Positions 2,760 through 36,430 of a stretch of 64,000 bases of DNA are shown one piece after another. Where the stretch lies: the IMG/VR virus record IMGVR_UViG_3300046535_001489, positions 6,715 through 70,714 of that record, one strand, 5' to 3'. The stretch's first letter is position 1. Each line of letters opens with the position of its first letter. The notes under the pieces are model-generated. The model was given only the letters and a program-made list of their open reading frames with translations. It was not told the origin of the DNA and ran no database searches. Source of the stretch: a virus. The position numbers and the translations under genes are program-made.

Positions 2760-5700
2760 TGGCTCAAGAAAGTAAATCGACCCTCCCTGTTACAGCTTCG
2801 GATTTCAAAGCTCCGTTCCAGACGGCGGTGACGCGCTATGGGGTTGAAGGTCTCAACATCACTGACGCCATCGACTTTGTAAAACCCAATGAGATGACGC
2901 GGATGGTGAATGTCACTCATAGGGTAGATGGGGGTGTGGAGCCGAGGCCGGGGCTGACTGCACTGGCAACAGGCGGGACGAACCACCATAGCATTAGGCT
3001 GCTCGACGGGCATGGAGTGTATGACCCCAATACCATCCATGGTGTCGATACGACGGTTATGGTTGGGCAGGCTGGGGCGCTTACGCAAGTTGATACGGGG
3101 TATTCTGGTGAGCCGTTGAGCCTTGTTCCCTTCCATCCTGTGCTCAACGGCGTGCCCTGGATGTACATCGGCGACACTGAACAGATGTCAAAGGTGCGAG
3201 AGGATGGGACGGTGCTGCAGGTGGGCATGGTGCCGCCTGGGCTGATTGCTACGACAGTTCTCGGCACGCTCAACAAAACCCCCATCGCCAACTTCCTCAC
3301 GGATGGCACTGCAGCAGCATCGTGGGCCGCAACAGCTGGTAAGAGCATCCCTGATAGCCTTAATGGGAGCATTGTTGCGACGGCTAATCCTACAGTCACT
3401 GGATTCTTTCCAGGGCCGGGAGGCGGTGCTACGCCAGTTAACTTTGGCTTTGGGTTGCCTACTGGCACGGCAATGGGGCAGGGGAGCGCACAGGATTTTT
3501 GGAATCTTTGGGGGGTAGCTGCGGGGAGAGATTTGAGCGTCGTTGGCGCTGAGCCGATGACCGACGACGACTACATCCATGTCTGGATACGGATGCAGAA
3601 CACTGCAGCGGTGAAGGAGATCCGCATCTACTTTGTCGTCAGTGCAAGCTTTGACCCAACGAAGTTGCCGGGGCAGGCTCCAACGACTGGTGGGGTGGTA
3701 CCAAATGCTGACGCCTATTGGGTGAGTATTCAGCCCCCAGACCTTTCGGGGGCGCTGAACGCGATTCGATTGGCTCCCGATGCGGCGTTGGCGCATTTTA
3801 ATCAGCAAATTCTAGATGCTGCAGCTGCAGGAGCACCGCTGGTGAGTGGGTCGCAACCGGTGATTCCAGTGATTGCTACGGGACCGGGTTCCGGCACATG
3901 GAATGAATATGCTTCAGTTGGGTTGCCGCTGCGACGGGGGGATTTTCAGCGCATTGGAGCCACCGCTGGACGAGACTGGAGCACCATCACAGGCATTATC
4001 ATCTATGCTGTAGGGTCGAAAGGGACAGGGTTTAGTAACATCGGATTCCAGCTCGCTGATATGTATGCTATGGGCGGCAGCGGGCCAGATAGCGGCGATG
4101 CCACGAGTACCCCGTATGATTATGTCTATACCCATTATGATTTATGGACGGGAGCTGAGAGCAACCCACAGCCGGGGGTAGATGCTGAAGATGATTTGAG
4201 TAATTCAGTGCCCATTGACGCGTTGCGGCGCAGCATCGTTGTCACACCAGGGGAGAGTTATCATAGCGCGCATGTGGTGCAGAGGTTCTATCGGCGGGGC
4301 GGGACGCTGCCGACGGATTGGTTTTTCGTAGGGCAGAACACAGCTGACGGAGCGGCGTTTATTGATACCATCACTGACACTGAAGCAGTGGCGGCTGGCA
4401 GTGTCGAAACTGACAACGACATGCCGGTATCTACAGTAGACCCTGATGGCGTCACGATTCTCCATCAGCCGCTGAGTTCTCTGTGGGGGCCTGTGGAAGG
4501 GTTTCTCATGGGGTGTGGCGACCCATACCGGCCAGGGTTTATTTACTTCAGCAAGCCGGGGAACCCTGATAGTTGGCCTCCGCAGAACCGCACTGAGGTG
4601 TGTTCGTCGTCGGAGCAATTGCTGCAGGGGGTGATGTATGGCGGGCAGGCGTTTGTGTTTAGTCAGGAACAAATGTATGCGCTGTATCCTAATCTGAGTG
4701 GCGATGTACCTGGGGTCACGTCACTCGTCACCCAATGCAAGAAAGGACTCGTCAATGGCTGCAGGTGGGGCGCGGCTGTGGGTATTGGTGGCATTGTTTT
4801 TATTGCGAATGATGGTATTTATCGTACAACGGGCGGTCCTCCGGAGTGGTTGAGTAAGAAGATTGATCCGCTGTTCAGGGGGCAGAGTAAGAATGGCATG
4901 CTGCCAATTGATTTCGACCAGCCGACGAAGCTGCGGATTGAAATCTACCAGAATGAGCTGTATTTTCTCTATCGAGATAGTAACAACGACACCCAATGTT
5001 TAGTCTATAGTCTCATCTATCAGTTCTGGCGGCAGTATAATTCGACCAAGCCTATTTCTTGCATGTATGCAGTGGAAGGGTCGTCAACGGATGTGCTGCA
5101 GGTAGGAGGCGGAGCTGGAGACGAATGGACGTTTGGTGGTGTTAGCGATGATGGGAATTCCATTGCCTGCAGCATGCGGGGTGGGGCGATTTTCTTCGAC
5201 CACCCGCGTGAAGAGAAGCGGCTCGGGGATCAGATTATCGATATGGATTCTGATGGGGTAACGATTACTCTGCAGAATTACTATAACTACGAAACAGTTG
5301 TGCCAGATCCGATTGCGTTGCCAACGTCGTCGGATCGCGGGCGGGTAGTATCTGATTCGTTCGGCCAGACTCCAGTGCGAGTGATTAATATCTCATCTGA
5401 TTTGAGTTGGTCGTCGGCTACGAATACTCCAAAAGTATTCTATCTCGGGACGTCAGCGATTATTGAGCCGGACCTCACGAAGGATCGCGTCACGCAGTGG
5501 GATGACCTTGGACAAGGTGATGAGGTTTATCTAACTGGCATTACTCTCGACGTAGACACTGGCGGCGAAGATAAAGGCGTAGTGTTTGAGGTCGATTATC
5601 AAGGAGTAATATCGACTGCCTACACTGCAGTAGTCAATGCTAATGGGCGGCATAAGGTTCGGTTCAGTTGGCCAGCCGTGCAGGCGAACATGGTGCGGAT

Positions 5701-29223: not shown

Positions 29224-29400
29224 CTAAAAGTCCATCTTGTCATGAATCCAATCAAGGTCTGATTGCATATCCTTAATCTGCGCTAAAAGGGGCTCGACAT
29301 CTTCCCATCTGCACCAAGCTCCGATTGGAGATTCTTCAATATCTATATTGTAATTATAATCTCCTACAATAACTACTTCTTCAATTTCGTATCGTTTCAT
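29224..29400 (-). CDS. Hypothetical protein
   Basis: MKRY...ESPIGAWCRWEDV, a common small phage motif. ATGA coupling. Confidence 0.55.
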   Translation of the reverse strand: MKRYEIEEVVIVGDYNYNIDIEESPIGAWCRWEDVEPLLAQIKDMQSDLDWIHDKMDF

Positions 29401-29999
29401 GCCACCACCAACACATTCACCGGCCACGCAATCCCCATCTCCCTCTTCGTCACACTCGCCCACGCCAGCGGCTTCGCAATCGTCTCCTCCAGCAGAAACA
29501 CAAACCCCTCAATCTCTGGTGACTCCTCTAGCTCAGCCTTGACTGAATCAAACAGCTCCTGGTCGGTAAATCCAGCCTTCGAGGTAATCTTCGTCTGCCC
29601 ACGATTCACAATCAACCCGCTGCCAGTCATAGGACTCACACATAGCATAAACGGCTCCTCGCATTGCATGGGGTTGCCTTTGATGTTTGGCCCAAAGGCT
29701 TCGTAAATGCCATCGTTGAGCTTGCCGCCGGGAGCGACCCGCTTAGCATTCACATAGGCAATATGCAGCAGCATATCTTCAGCTGGAAAAGTGTCAACGT
29801 CGAGCTGACATAGAGCAGCATCAGGGTCTGGGGGTGCTGGATACCATCGATATGGCAATCCTTTCTGCACTACCACTTGTACTCCATCTAGCTTAATCGT
29901 CAGCAATCCCTGCTTTTCTCTCATCCAGGCTGACTCAGGATTAATCTGAGGCACAGCCATGCCACTGGCATCCCTCACAAACAACGGTACGACTTTCAT
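29397..29999 (-). CDS. RNA ligase-like nucleotidyltransferase (DUF5565-like)
   Basis: MKVVPLFVR, TIKLDG (KxDG adenylation motif), DGIYEAFGP.I.GNP and IEGFVF. Confidence 0.65.
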   Translation of the reverse strand: MKVVPLFVRDASGMAVPQINPESAWMREKQGLLTIKLDGVQVVVQKGLPYRWYPAPPDPDAALCQLDVDTFPAEDMLLHIAYVNAKRVAPGGKLNDGIYEAFGPNIKGNPMQCEEPFMLCVSPMTGSGLIVNRGQTKITSKAGFTDQELFDSVKAELEESPEIEGFVFLLEETIAKPLAWASVTKREMGIAWPVNVLVVA

Positions 30000-30202: not shown

Positions 30203-30222
30203 GTTTAACTCCTGAAAAACTC

Positions 30223-30332
30223 TGACCCACCCCGTCCTAGATCCCCCACCTAGGATGCCTATGGCTTTCGCCTCATATCAACTTCACCCCCGAGGATAGT
30301 TTGTTGGCTATCTTGCTCGGCAGAGTGGGTCA
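30223..30332 (-). ncRNA. Candidate structured RNA (four-way junction with a GAAA tetraloop)
   Basis: TGACCCAC/GTGGGTCA closing stem enclosing three hairpins, including GGC-GAAA-GCC. Confidence 0.5.
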
Positions 30333-30337
30333 TTCTC

Positions 30338-30446
30338 TTTGATAGCCTACGAACCTGAGTCGCTGATTTGCACAGCATTAGGTATGGCTAACCCGGCCTT
30401 TCTAATCGGCCCATTCTCAGCAGTACGTCTACGGTAGGCTATCAAA
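30338..30446 (-). ncRNA. Candidate structured RNA with a T-loop-like hairpin
   Basis: 13-bp closing stem TTTGATAGCCTAC/GTAGGCTATCAAA; inner CTGAG/CTCAG, ATTAG/CTAAT and GCTG-TGCAAAT-CAGC. Confidence 0.5.
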
Positions 30447-30460
30447 CTTGTTAAAAATAG

Positions 30461-30515
30461 TGGACCGGCCTAGACTCGAACTAGGTTATTCCGGAAGACC
30501 CCACGGTCCCGGCCC
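30461..30515 (-). ncRNA. 55-nt tRNA-like RNA lacking an anticodon arm, with alanine identity elements
   Basis: GGGCCGG/CCGGTCC-A acceptor stem with G3-U70; GACC-GTGG-GGTC; T arm CCTAG-TTCGAGT-CTAGG. Confidence 0.7.
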
Positions 30516-31050
30516 AAATTAATCTGGCTCCCGTAAGAGCAATTGGGATTTTAGCCACCTGGATCACACCCTCATCTCTTCCTTACCTGTGGCTACGACG
30601 GTAGCAAAACTTTATCGACAGTTATGAATCACTACTGATGAGCTTTGATAGCTGACATACCACACAGCCATAGCCACATAAGCAGCTAGGCAAAGCGTGC
30701 TGCCGAGAATGAATTTAGTCATACACTCGTTCCTGTAATGAATTCGTAGTCGCCGGGGAACTTGAGGTTGTCGTTGGCTTCAATGAGCCACTCGTTGACA
30801 ATTTCATGGGCGTCAAATTCTCCTTCGCCTAGAGTATAGCCATAACTGGAGTCGTCAACAGGTACAATAAACTTCACAGTAACTTCAACTTTAGTCACAA
30901 TCATCCTCATAATCCCAATCGCTGGGCTTCGTTGGGGCCACGATAATCTTCTCATGGCAGGTGCAAGTGCAGCGAAATCGCTTGCCCCCAGCATCAAAGA
31001 GATGCTCCGGGCAGGAGTCGTGTTCGTTTGAATAACATAGACCGCTTAGT

Positions 31051-32743: not shown

Positions 32744-33838
32744 CTATGCCGTCACCATCGTTCCGCGCCTCTCCAACCACGTCAGATGAGCTGGATTGTG
32801 GCACGCAACTATCGGACATCCCATCGTTGTACACCTATGTTCCATGACTATGCCATTGACGACTTGGGTATCGATAACCGAGCCAAACTGCATGGTGGCA
32901 TAGTTATTGTCGTTTGTAGCCACTGCTGTTGTCTGCTTCGATGCAGTGGAATTCTTCGCTCCTGGCACATCAGCCAGCGCCGCCTCAATATCAGCAGCCA
33001 AATCCGCTACATCAGCTTCTCTACCCTCATACACCGCCAACGCATGCTCAAACCTCAACTTATCCACATACAACTCATGCAAATACTGCTCCTGCTTCAA
33101 ACTCTCCACAGCCTTTTTGCAATGCTCCTTTCTCACATGTTCTATTGCTCCCCAGTAGTCCTCCACTCCGGCAGTAATCATCAGTGCACACAGTGCTGTT
33201 CCAGTGCGCCCATGACCCCCATGGCATGCTATCACTGTTTTAGCTGGCAAAGCTTCCCATAAGTGCTGCCAGAAATCCAGCTCAACCGGGGGGATTCCCA
33301 TATCGGTCCAATCCAAGCTCAGCAATTGAGCAGTCATCACTTGGGGTTCGGGTTTGGGCACAAAGGATTCGAGCTTCTCCAACAGCGCCTTTGGCACTGT
33401 GCTAAGCGATCTTACAAACTTAGACGACGTATCACTCTTTGGCCGCACATTTCCAGCAAGGTCAATAATGAGATTCCACTGATCAGAATACTCCTTCAAC
33501 CCCTGCCAGCTCGAAGCATAGAGAGCTTTGCCTTCGTGCTCAAAGACAACTTTACTTCCAGTGTGGTCACAGGTTGGGCCAGAGATATAACCACTATTAC
33601 CACTATAACTATAACCATTCGGCCATTGATTATTTGACTGCGGCACATTTGCCCCACCCTGCCATCCACCCGCCGCTTTACTCCCTTTCTTCACCAACAT
33701 CGGTAGTTGTGTTGCCATACTCTCCTCTAGCATTTCTGCTTCTAGGTAATTCTGAATCTCATCCATTGAAGGGTCTAGGAATGCACGGCCCTTTGCAGCC
33801 TTAGCCACTTTCGCCTTCTTTTCGCGCCTACGCCCCAT
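32744..33838 (-). CDS. Protein-tyrosine / dual-specificity phosphatase-like protein
   Basis: WTDMGIP (WPD-loop equivalent), ACHGGHGRTG (CX5R) and AVESLKQEQYL (Q-loop). Start set at ATG 33838 after GAGG. Confidence 0.85.
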   Translation of the reverse strand: MGRRREKKAKVAKAAKGRAFLDPSMDEIQNYLEAEMLEESMATQLPMLVKKGSKAAGGWQGGANVPQSNNQWPNGYSYSGNSGYISGPTCDHTGSKVVFEHEGKALYASSWQGLKEYSDQWNLIIDLAGNVRPKSDTSSKFVRSLSTVPKALLEKLESFVPKPEPQVMTAQLLSLDWTDMGIPPVELDFWQHLWEALPAKTVIACHGGHGRTGTALCALMITAGVEDYWGAIEHVRKEHCKKAVESLKQEQYLHELYVDKLRFEHALAVYEGREADVADLAADIEAALADVPGAKNSTASKQTTAVATNDNNYATMQFGSVIDTQVVNGIVMEHRCTTMGCPIVACHNPAHLTWLERRGTMVTA

Positions 33839-33849
33839 TGAGAATAACC

Positions 33850-36063
33850 TCACTTTTTGACTACGAAAGGAAGTTGTTTGCCATCGTGCCATACAGCGGT
33901 GATAGTGAAGTTTGTGTCGTAATGTGCTGCGGTTGCGAGATAGCTTTCTACGATGTAGTTTACACCTTTTTCACTATTCGGATATGCCGGATAATACCCC
34001 CCAGCATCTGATGAATAGCTGCCTTCAGCTCCATAATCTTGCAGGGGCTTCAGAAACTCCTGCACATTCTCCACAGCAACCTGCACCGTTCTCGAAAAGT
34101 ACCCAATCTCCCCTACAGCAAACTGGAAATGCATGCTCACTATATTCCCGGACTGAGCTTCATATCTTACATGAATTTTAGTGACTTTGTGCTCTATGGG
34201 ATTGTAGACGATCTTTGAGAGCTTTGTTGGGCCACTTGGGTTATCTGGCTCAACAGCTAGAGGTTCTTCTTCTTTAGTATCCTCAATCTCCATTGGTTTA
34301 TCATCGATAATTTCAATGATGTCGTCGTCAGACTCATCACTATCATTAGAGTCTTCTTCAGGCAACTCACGGCTCATTCGCTCAGCAACCACAATCGGCT
34401 GCTGAAGCTTATACTGCTCCACAAGCTCAGCCGCTCGTGGATTCGTAAACTCCTTTGCTACCTGCAACGCTGCCCAACCTGCTTCGGCAATAATAGTTAG
34501 ATTCTGCTCAGCAGCATAGGTAAATGTCAGGTCGTCCCCAGTAAACTTATTCATCCACCAGCCGTTATTATGTGCTTGATTCACAGCTAGATTGAGCTTT
34601 TCTGTCATGGCTAGCACATTAGCATGTGTTGGCCAGCGAAGCATCTCCAAAATAGCCGTATCCAACTCAATCAATGCTGCTGTACACTTTCCCCACTCTT
34701 TACCACCATAACCCTGTGGCCACGAGTCATACACAAACGCTTCGTGGGCAATTTTTAGCATCTGCCGGGATGAGAAGAACTGTTTGAAGGAGAGCTGATA
34801 GATATTACTTCGTAGAGTTGTTGTTCCGCCCCCTCCAGGCCGATGCCTTGCTTCTCCATGAGCTGCAGCCAGTCCCATTCTCAGCATCACTGCAGCACTA
34901 ACCCCCAACCACACCCCATACCCATTGCTCATTGCAGGGGCATTGTGGAGCGCCACGAGCATCAGTTTGATGGCTTGGGCTCTCTCAGACCTATCGCTAT
35001 CACTAAAATCCAGCACCAACCCAATCCCCAAACCCCTCATCACCGCTTTAGGATCTGGAGGTCGAATGTCGGCTTTAGGCTCCTTCTCCAGCCATTCCCC
35101 AACCACTGGCATTCTCGATGTCATAATGGGGATTCGATTGAGCAGACAATGCACCCCATAGTGGGATATCACACTCCCGCCAAGATGCACCACAACTGTG
35201 CCTTGCCGAATCTCAGCTGTTTGGGATTCCCACAGCTGCAAGTCCCCCGAAGCCTCAAGAATCCTCTCCACCTGCACACGCTGAGGAATGTAGTCTCGCT
35301 CAATCCCAGCAATCTTAGGGCCTGCGCGGAGTTGGGTGAAGTGCCAACTATTCTTTCGCACTGCTTCAACATATGGTGAGCTATCCTCGCCCACCCCTGC
35401 AGCACGAATTACAGCTTCATCCAAATCCCCAAACGGCGCACCGATAAGTGGAAGCTCAATCGACTCATGCCCCGAAGTGGCCCCATCATGCCCTACACCT
35501 ACTGAAATTTTGTAGGGAGTAATAACTGCATTTGCAGTGGCTCCTTCGATCAGCGGGCACAGCAACACTTCAGCATGTGGATCTGCGGCTTGGGCTTCAT
35601 GAAAGATAGCTCGCAGAGCTTCTTTATCGTTTTTAGCCACAGGCCGGCTGTCAACAAAGCCATGCCGGGGTCGCTCGGGGCACGGTCTGGCGAAGTAGGG
35701 TGGAGAATATATATAAGGACTCGATGCCCCTACAATAATATCAATATCCCCCTCTTCACCGATGATATAGTAGGGTCTGGGCACAGTCAAACTACTCTTA
35801 TGGGCAAGAGTAATATACCCTCTAGACTTCTGCGTGCGAGGCTGCACGAATCCTCTATTCACCGCAGCTGTACGGCTATCAATACTCTCCCCAACTGCAA
35901 CGCATTCACTCTCCTCACATATATGATGAATCTCGCAAAACGGCTCCTTGCACAAAATACACAGAGGCTCGACTTTGACTTTCGGCACATCTCCCTCCAC
36001 TGCTGGCGAATTAGGCAGATACTTCTTCGAGAGTTGGGCTAGCGTTTGCGGGCTGAGAGCCAT
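33850..36063 (-). CDS. PEP-utiliser / PPDK-like phosphotransferase (degenerate ATP-grasp, His swivel, helical domain)
   Basis: FARPCP.RPRHGFVDSR, FTQLRAGP and GGSVISHYGVHC..NRIP (swivel His); GEARH, GYGGKEW and AHNNGWWMNKF. Confidence 0.6.
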   Translation of the reverse strand: MALSPQTLAQLSKKYLPNSPAVEGDVPKVKVEPLCILCKEPFCEIHHICEESECVAVGESIDSRTAAVNRGFVQPRTQKSRGYITLAHKSSLTVPRPYYIIGEEGDIDIIVGASSPYIYSPPYFARPCPERPRHGFVDSRPVAKNDKEALRAIFHEAQAADPHAEVLLCPLIEGATANAVITPYKISVGVGHDGATSGHESIELPLIGAPFGDLDEAVIRAAGVGEDSSPYVEAVRKNSWHFTQLRAGPKIAGIERDYIPQRVQVERILEASGDLQLWESQTAEIRQGTVVVHLGGSVISHYGVHCLLNRIPIMTSRMPVVGEWLEKEPKADIRPPDPKAVMRGLGIGLVLDFSDSDRSERAQAIKLMLVALHNAPAMSNGYGVWLGVSAAVMLRMGLAAAHGEARHRPGGGGTTTLRSNIYQLSFKQFFSSRQMLKIAHEAFVYDSWPQGYGGKEWGKCTAALIELDTAILEMLRWPTHANVLAMTEKLNLAVNQAHNNGWWMNKFTGDDLTFTYAAEQNLTIIAEAGWAALQVAKEFTNPRAAELVEQYKLQQPIVVAERMSRELPEEDSNDSDESDDDIIEIIDDKPMEIEDTKEEEPLAVEPDNPSGPTKLSKIVYNPIEHKVTKIHVRYEAQSGNIVSMHFQFAVGEIGYFSRTVQVAVENVQEFLKPLQDYGAEGSYSSDAGGYYPAYPNSEKGVNYIVESYLATAAHYDTNFTITAVWHDGKQLPFVVKK

Positions 36064-36430
36064 TAACTTTCTCCTTCTTCTTCAAATCCCTATGCTCAAT
36101 TTCCACATCCCAACCATTTTCACGGCACTGCTGAGCAATAATCTCCACAATCGCTACAGAACGATGTTTGCCGCCTTGGCAACCGATAGCAGCTGTGTAG
36201 AAACCAAGACTTAGCTGTGTCATAGCTTTATTGATAATCACCTGCGCCCCCGCGCACTTCGTCACAAATGCCTGGACATCAGAGTCAAGCCCATTGAGCT
36301 TTCGCAGCTTTGGATGCCGCCACGGGTTACGAACAGTTTTGCGGGCATCGTGGACTCTTGTGAAGCTGCTATTTGAGATTTTACCATTCTTGTAGGCAAA
36401 CGAAATGAGCTTGACTTTCTTCGCTTCCAT
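36011..36430 (-). CDS. Stand-alone RapZ C-terminal domain protein
   Basis: LISFAYKNG, DAR...RNPW..PKLRKLNGLD.DV and AIGCQGGKHRSVAIVE...IEHRDL. Confidence 0.85.
   Translation of the reverse strand: MEAKKVKLISFAYKNGKISNSSFTRVHDARKTVRNPWRHPKLRKLNGLDSDVQAFVTKCAGAQVIINKAMTQLSLGFYTAAIGCQGGKHRSVAIVEIIAQQCRENGWDVEIEHRDLKKKEKVNGSQPANASPTLEEVSA

Follow-up and report, generated by a model that had tools for sequence, protein, structure and literature searches.

The mini-tRNA and its surroundings

The window, by which we mean the whole 64,000-nt stretch of DNA that was analysed, comprises bases 6715-70714 of a 70,714-bp viral record that has direct terminal repeats and is rated complete. The phage comes from soil and is tailed, with a P22/SU10-type portal, a terminase and a major head protein; no close relative of it was found among GenBank phages. 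A long block of replication and recombination genes on the minus strand encodes a family A DNA polymerase, a PD-(D/E)XK exonuclease, a Sak4-like protein, an AAA_25 protein and a UDG. The same early block encodes a 139-aa protein (36011-36430, minus strand) that carries the C-terminal domain of RapZ (PF22740, E 4.5e-24), with which this RNase adaptor binds RNA. Neither an integrase family nor an smpB-like gene was seen among the 63 ORFs that we scanned with Pfam.

The mini-tRNA, 55 nt long (30461..30515, minus strand), lies between genes on the coding strand of an operon, and there is no sigma-70-like promoter nearby. Upstream, a 36-aa membrane-peptide ORF (30612..30722, minus strand; its homologue is at 732-842 of the related locus L003) marks the boundary of a variable slot. 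Two hairpins on the minus strand lie between this ORF and the mini-tRNA: a longer one in the leader (30552..30595) and a stable one with 5 bp and a UACG loop (30527..30540), which ends 11 nt before G1 and leaves a U at base -1. Downstream are two further structured stretches, which we call domain 2 (30338..30451, minus strand) and domain 3 (30218..30337, minus strand), then a 68-aa ORF and an RNA ligase gene (29397..29999, minus strand).

On the minus strand, positions 30515..30461 read GGGCCGGGACCGTGGGGTCTTCCGGAATAACCTAGTTCGAGTCTAGGCCGGTCCA, and because CTATTTTTA comes directly 3' of it, CCA is not encoded. The 5' strand of the acceptor stem (30515-30509) is adjoined by a hairpin, GACC/GUGG/GGUC, with 4 bp and a GUGG loop (30508-30497), and then by a single strand of 11 unpaired bases, UUCCGGAAUAA (30496-30486). 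The T arm (30485-30469) has 5 bp and the loop UUCGAGU, and its stem abuts the 3' strand of the acceptor (30468-30462), in which U70 is position 30464; A73 is position 30461. The 3' trailer CUAUUUUUA (30452..30460, minus strand), which reads CUA after A73, is kept beside the mini-tRNA in another haplotype of this phage (X5, see below). The acceptor stem thus has 7 bp including G3-U70, and only 23 nt stand between its first strand and the T arm, with no anticodon arm. This fold is both the minimum free energy (MFE) and the centroid structure, at -24.0 kcal/mol and 0.83 of the ensemble, and it persists when the whole 418-nt non-coding gap is folded. Its energy is unremarkable (z -1.41; 18 of 200 shuffled sequences fold equally well).

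The upper half of a canonical tRNA is present in full: a 7-bp acceptor stacked on a 5-bp T stem, a loop of the form UUCRANY and the G53-C61 pair. The rest of the cloverleaf, that is, a D arm and a 5-bp anticodon stem with a 7-nt loop, is absent. The alanine marks G1-C72, G2-C71, G3-U70 and A73 all lie on the acceptor/T helix, which accordingly has the sequence of a minihelix that alanyl-tRNA synthetase (AlaRS) would recognise. What the mini-tRNA retains is only the upper half of a tRNA, which accepts the amino acid; it is unable to decode.

As the original prediction had expected, no canonical tRNA is called at this site: ARAGORN found 0 tRNAs or tmRNAs in the 64,000-nt window or in the whole 70,714-bp genome. 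The sequence and fold it had proposed proved exact, and it was right that the anticodon arm is missing and that CCA is not encoded. Rfam gave nothing at gathering level for the locus, and its tRNA (RF00005), tmRNA and mascRNA models gave no match at E<=10 even when 101 nt alone were used as the query. Because tRNA finders miss such units, phage tRNA counts and the label 'tRNA-less' are incomplete. A strict descriptor of the top half (a perfect 7-bp acceptor, an abutting perfect 5-bp T stem and a TTCRANY loop) matches once in the genome, as compared to 0.07 matches expected from a first-order Markov simulation, in which one or more matches occurred in 11 of 200 genomes.

Searches by sequence returned little. 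A 25-mer of the mini-tRNA had 0 matches in viral contigs, blastn against GenBank phages gave just T-arm matches to tRNAs, and the flanking proteins, each searched singly in IMG/VR, brought up no close relatives. We found no second copy of the leader, the mini-tRNA or domain 2 in the genome or in the loci that we fetched. A search of prokaryotes with covariance model R1 gave nothing in 3 genomes at E<=1e-3 and nothing in 151 genomes from a single phylum at E<=1e-4. The sole match of an acceptor-plus-T-stem pattern, in contig L019, lies within a terminase-like coding region and was taken as chance.

A tRNA slot before an RNA ligase gene

The gene downstream encodes a 200-aa 5'-3' RNA ligase of the C12orf29/RLIG1 type with a KxDG motif, as judged by alignment, an AlphaFold model and Foldseek. 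The model has a pLDDT of 83, and its best Foldseek match is the C12orf29 5'-3' RNA ligase of Yasminevirus (9c6l/9c6m, E 4e-6, TMq 0.65). Members of the C12orf29 family are reported to ligate the halves of tRNA anticodon loops in vitro (PMC11071452).

When we compared 16 loci that encode relatives of this ligase, we found a full tRNA-Leu with an encoded CCA about 120-140 nt before the ligase start in three of them (L003, L004 and L013) and no tRNA in the 13 others. These three are the closest relatives having upstream sequence, with ligases 63%, 32% and 33% identical to that of the window, respectively, and L003 and L013 are syntenic with the window. The mini-tRNA occupies the slot where these three loci carry tRNA-Leu. 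The original prediction had named a full tRNA-Ala at this place in relatives as the finding that would speak for a recent deletion; a full tRNA is indeed there, but it is a tRNA-Leu, and beyond the T arm the mini-tRNA has no significant likeness to it. The comparison gave p 0.016 for L003 and about 0.5 for L004 and L013 (500 shuffles each). The stem letters of the first mini-tRNA hairpin are the same as those of the variable arm of the L004 tRNA-Leu. We also considered whether the leader or domain 2 derives from the relatives' tRNA-Leu and rejected this (p 0.38-0.96 for the leader and 0.18-0.45 for domain 2, 500 shuffles).

The relatives' tRNA-Leu, with anticodon UAA or CAA, stands directly before the ligase leader. 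A gene for a PTP-like phosphatase lies a few kb upstream of the ligase gene, in the same order in the window (29397-29999 and 32744-33892, minus strand) and in L013 (770-2008 and about 2995-3603). A tRNA-Leu or the mini-tRNA, a structured leader, a C12orf29-type ligase and a PTP-like phosphatase together make a candidate phage module for tRNA/RNA repair or counter-defence, which merits separate study as a candidate RNA-repair cassette. In L003, the ligase frame beyond residue ~164 continues into unrelated sequence resembling a metabolic enzyme (about 1780-2276), where the contig is probably a chimeric assembly.

Domain 3, the conserved structured leader before the 68-aa ORF and the ligase gene, is rich in G runs and 83-84% identical to positions 1151-1266/1268 of L003. 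Among its 34 consensus pairs, 3 have both bases exchanged, 5 have one exchanged and 0 are broken, and it has no Rfam match. The sole match of an 18-mer from domain 3, in contig L020, was put down to chance. L004 and L013 have a second version of the structured leader after their tRNA-Leu, with 19 pairs and 1 double change. Domain 2, an insertion/deletion of 114 nt with a perfect 13-bp closing stem (fold z -3.14), may be a small mobile or structured RNA cassette.

Using contigs from public soil and rhizosphere runs, we found that the mini-tRNA slot varies among near-identical strains. Haplotypes X2 and X3 match the window exactly over the part of the slot that they span, domain 2 included, and may come from the source sample or close to it. 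X5 lacks domain 2 (joint 30337/30452), so that its mini-tRNA, with one mismatch, stands 10 nt before domain 3. In the closely related haplotype X4, 65 nt whose bases are unread take the place of the 269 nt (30338-30606) that hold the mini-tRNA, with the joint at 30607, and for this reason the mini-tRNA may be dispensable.

The L039 homologue and look-alike units

To find related units, we scanned viral contigs with a motif that fixed GGG (G1-G3), G53, the T loop, C61 and UCCA (U70-A73) and left 12 of the 16 pairs free. The scan matched at least 122 loci; among the matches listed, 81 lie in tRNAs called by ARAGORN (mostly tRNA-Ala(UGC)) and 41 lie outside them. One match outside, a 52-nt unit in contig L039 (152-203), reads GGGCGCGCCCCGTGGGGGGTTCCGGTCGATGGTTCGAGTCCATCCGCGTCCA and folds into the same architecture as the mini-tRNA. 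On a covariance model built from the window mini-tRNA alone, it scores 48.1 bits over its full length (E 1.5e-10). Of the 16 pairs, 7 differ between the two units in both bases yet still pair, all 7 of them among the 12 that the pattern left free, and 0 are broken. The double changes fall at acceptor pairs 5 and 6, hairpin pairs 1 and 2, and T-stem pairs 1, 2 and 4. In contrast to these stems, the GUGG loop and the unpaired UUCCGG are identical at 10 of 10 bases. The alanine marks G1-C72, G2-C71, G3-U70 and A73 are present in both units; since the search pattern fixed GGG...UCCA, those of L039 were preset and the conservation of G3-U70 is not an independent result.

The original prediction fared well on two features, the small D-like hairpin with GG, which is conserved to the letter in its GUGG loop, and the alanine identity, with the proviso just given for L039. 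The compensatory changes that it had suggested looking for are there, seven pairs strong, but they leave aside G3-U70 itself, which the pattern held fixed.

The two phages otherwise have little in common. The L039 contig is 41,318 bp with 68.6% GC, as compared to 70.7 kb and about 50% GC for the window phage. In a tblastx comparison they share no match at E<=1e-5; therefore, the mini-tRNA is conserved independently of its neighbours. P0010, the gene downstream of the L039 unit, has no tblastn match in the window phage better than E 0.12. Each of the two carries one such unit and no ARAGORN tRNA. The L039 unit also lies within a replication/recombination block, after genes for an exonuclease, a Sak4-like protein and an SSB, and, as in the window, on the coding strand between genes. 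Immediately before it come a hairpin and then a U run, and a 7-bp hairpin lies 6 nt after its A73. Its fold energy is not better than that of shuffled sequences (z -1.00), and its fold is not kept in the MFE structure of its 168-nt GC-rich context. In that structure an upstream C-rich stretch pairs with the 5' half of the unit, which may be an alternative structure or a GC-rich artefact. The 7-base 5' acceptor strand of the L039 unit is repeated 48 nt upstream (L039 100-151 and L144 3114-3165).

The proposed family has a 7-bp acceptor, an adjoining 4-bp hairpin with a GUGG loop, a single strand of 8-11 nt led by UUCCGG, a 5-bp T arm and A73, in 52-55 nt. It has two clear members among the 122 matches listed for the pattern and 60 kb of two phage contigs. 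A 52-55-nt anticodon-less unit of alanine type conserved between unrelated phages was found neither in Rfam nor in the main texts covered by a full-text literature search. Because the same unit recurs, with matching stem changes, in a phage that is otherwise unrelated, the mini-tRNA is likely to be a working part. Judged by these comparisons, it is neither a chance fold nor a fresh deletion scar, and the L039 homologue with its compensatory changes is the decisive evidence. The best explanation is that the mini-tRNA would be a gene-like unit of a family that is not in Rfam.

Other anticodon-less units resemble the mini-tRNA less closely. In a phage tRNA array, L056 has a unit with an acceptor stem identical to that of the mini-tRNA, 7 nt after a tRNA-Val; the true tRNAs of this array also lack an encoded CCA. 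A further unit in the same array (G002, L149 14152-14217) has intact acceptor, D and T arms and only 14 nt in place of the anticodon arm and variable loop, and ARAGORN makes no call there. The 62-nt unit of L067 has a D arm but lacks an anticodon arm, and its acceptor equals that of a phage tRNA-Ala. In L108 (77-200, plus strand), an anticodon-less unit of 48 nt that has A3-U70 and encodes its CCA begins 4 nt after a gene resembling tRNA-Ala(GGC), and L110 (148-219, minus strand) has a 72-nt unit resembling a tmRNA reduced to its tRNA-like domain (TLD), with 29.9 bits on Rfam tmRNA. The Rfam mascRNA model matches L108 (32 bits), L056 (26.6 bits) and L039 (22.7 bits) weakly, its gathering score being 42.5. 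A fixed pairing of the mini-tRNA with an RNA ligase was considered and found unsupported: a ligase relative is present in 0 of 5 viral records with look-alikes, all of them incomplete.

Function and comparison with known systems

An acceptor/T helix of 12 bp, together with a T loop and its GG partner, is the minimal body for RNase P, RNase Z and the CCA-adding enzyme, and G3-U70 with A73 is the identity set of AlaRS. We tentatively favour, at a probability somewhat short of even, the reading that the mini-tRNA is a stand-alone, non-decoding tRNA mimic that is cut out by tRNA-processing enzymes and probably alanylated. The RNA would keep the coaxial acceptor/T-arm helix and the T loop, with nothing in place of the anticodon arm, and the 4-bp hairpin would stand in for the D arm, its GUGG loop supplying the two Gs that normally lock onto the T loop. 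It would be transcribed within the early/replication operon, cut at G1 by RNase P, trimmed after A73 by a 3' endonuclease or by exonucleases, and extended by the CCA-adding enzyme. Because it has G1-C72, G2-C71, G3-U70 and A73, the CCA-tailed RNA is a predicted AlaRS substrate. The released RNA would itself be the product, a mimic acting in trans by occupying a putative factor that reads the acceptor end or elbow of tRNA. We favour a mimic because the unit's conservation does not depend on its neighbours and extends to its loops, and because the unit keeps company with tRNA genes. Several observations speak against it: CCA is not encoded in the mini-tRNA, whereas it is in the tRNA-Leu of the three relatives; the L108 look-alike has A3-U70; the clear family members number just two; haplotype X4 may do without the unit; the fold energies of both units are no better than those of shuffled sequences; and the L039 fold is lost in its 168-nt context.

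A more specific proposal, which we regard as unlikely, is that the mini-tRNA is a minimal acceptor dedicated to alanine, a naturally occurring minihelix-Ala that comes with its own elbow. Matured, CCA-tailed and charged by the host, it would serve in trans as a decoy (for SmpB/tmRNA, EF-Tu, or defence nucleases or acetyltransferases that target the acceptor end) or as an alanine donor outside the ribosome, and would be a 55-nt cassette moving between unrelated phages. If the mini-tRNA is charged, it would represent a new viral interference with translation quality control or tRNA-directed defence.

The strongest rival, somewhat unlikely in our judgement, is that the mini-tRNA is a cutting mark only: RNase P and a 3' tRNA nuclease would split the polycistronic transcript, separating the message of the upstream small genes from the structured ligase leader, and the excised RNA would have no job of its own, as with the signals in t-elements and mascRNA. 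The position of the unit is consistent with this, inside an operon, on the coding strand and with no nearby sigma-70-like promoter, and so is its missing CCA; a true tRNA in the relatives' slot would yield the same cuts. In both phages the unit is closely flanked by stable structures, a hairpin on the upstream side and, downstream, domain 2 or 3 in the window and the 7-bp hairpin in L039; these would protect the new RNA ends after cutting. Such flanks fit pure processing as well as they fit a mimic. The weak mascRNA matches of L108, L056 and L039 point the same way, but the window mini-tRNA itself has none. There is one copy per genome, which is not a general punctuation system, and look-alikes occur within tRNA arrays, where the neighbouring tRNAs already give cuts. 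The identity of UUCCGG and GUGG across phages with no other detectable similarity exceeds the constraint known for cutting signals. If the mini-tRNA is only a cutting mark, phages reuse a minimal RNase P/Z substrate to shape their operon transcripts.

We consider it quite improbable that the mini-tRNA is an extreme kind of TLD-only tmRNA that binds SmpB and blocks trans-translation. The obvious counterpart is the TLD-only tmRNA of Mycobacterium phage DS6A (tmRNA Website tmID 11587; PMC4131195), which is likewise phage-encoded and non-decoding, has G3-U70, A73 and a T arm but no anticodon arm, ends in ...UCCACUA without CCA and lies in an intergenic gap among replication genes. A TLD-like molecule is reported to inhibit tmRNA strongly, perhaps by titrating SmpB (Hudson, Lau and Williams 2014, PMC4131195). 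The bases leading up to the T arm (UUCCGG... in the window, UUCCGGUCGA in L039) are loosely like the D-loop analogue of the Rfam tmRNA consensus. In a TLD, however, the D-loop analogue comes right after the acceptor strand and is followed by a P2 helix closed by non-Watson-Crick G-A pairs. The DS6A RNA follows this order in 83 nt; in contrast, the 55-nt mini-tRNA has its GUGG hairpin after the acceptor, on the wrong side of the D-loop-like stretch, and has neither P2 nor the G-A pairs at its base. As a positive control, the DS6A RNA scored 43.2 bits on Rfam tmRNA (RF00023), in the same search mode that gave the mini-tRNA nothing at E<=10, and the L110 unit also scored on that model; conversely, DS6A reached only 18.6 bits on the mini-tRNA's own covariance model. 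Because it has no P2, a hairpin at the site of the D-loop analogue and no Rfam tmRNA score, we do not file the mini-tRNA as a tmRNA, and the resemblance to the tmRNA tRNA-like domain in the original prediction is not supported as family membership. The mini-tRNA may still act in a tmRNA-like way.

It is very improbable that the mini-tRNA is a decaying, functionless leftover of a tRNA gene that suffered an internal deletion in a former tRNA slot. This would agree with the full tRNA-Leu in the slot of 3 of 3 relatives with upstream sequence, with the lack of any ARAGORN tRNA in the window phage, with the flux of the slot in X4 and X5, and with the stem letters shared by the first hairpin and the L004 variable arm. 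The same reduced architecture, with 7 compensatory pairs, in the unrelated phage of L039 argues against a recent-deletion remnant, because a deletion scar would not be conserved in this way. In addition, neither the T loop nor any of the 16 pairs is damaged, beyond the T arm the unit does not significantly resemble the tRNA-Leu of the relatives, and the interior differs from that of a tRNA-Ala or tRNA-Leu minus its middle.

Least probable, and hardly credible to us, is a branched intrinsic terminator (a closing helix and a U run) or a DNA-level structure such as an origin element of the replication module: a U5 run kept in X5 does begin 4 nt after the closing helix and both family members sit in replication/recombination modules, but L039 has no U run after its unit, a terminator scan did not flag the site, and the canonical T loop with its 7+5 bp geometry is tRNA-specific and needless for either role. 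An attP site matching the 3' end of a host tRNA or tmRNA was dropped, since it would not include the 5' acceptor strand, and no integrase or recombinase family is present among the 63 ORFs scanned.

Known examples of tRNA mimics unable to decode include tmRNA, those of plant viruses and a few processing signals. Among processing signals, mascRNA/MEN-beta (RF01684) and plant mitochondrial t-elements share with the mini-tRNA a reduced tRNA shape in a longer transcript and are likewise predicted RNase P/RNase Z substrates; in both the window and L039 such a shape stands on the coding strand between genes. In contrast to the mini-tRNA, mascRNA and t-elements are eukaryotic or organellar, and the mini-tRNA has no match to RF01684.

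Among decoding RNAs, the acceptor end of the mini-tRNA recurs in true phage tRNA-Ala(UGC) genes such as L030 and L094. L030 matches it at 13 of 14 bases (GGGCUGG/CCGGUCC-A, as compared to GGGCCGG/CCGGUCC-A in the mini-tRNA), and the T loop is UUCGAGU in both. Unlike the mini-tRNA, these genes have a full cloverleaf with an anticodon and an encoded CCA.

The synthetic minihelix-Ala and microhelix-Ala share with the mini-tRNA the acceptor/T-arm helix, G3-U70, A73 and the absence of an anticodon; Francklyn and Schimmel are said to have found in 1989 that minihelices with G3-U70 are charged by AlaRS. Those RNAs are laboratory constructs with a CCA end, whereas the mini-tRNA is natural and has a D-arm substitute, a conserved UUCCGG and no encoded CCA. 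If it is charged, the mini-tRNA would be the first counterpart of the classic minihelix-Ala to be found in nature.
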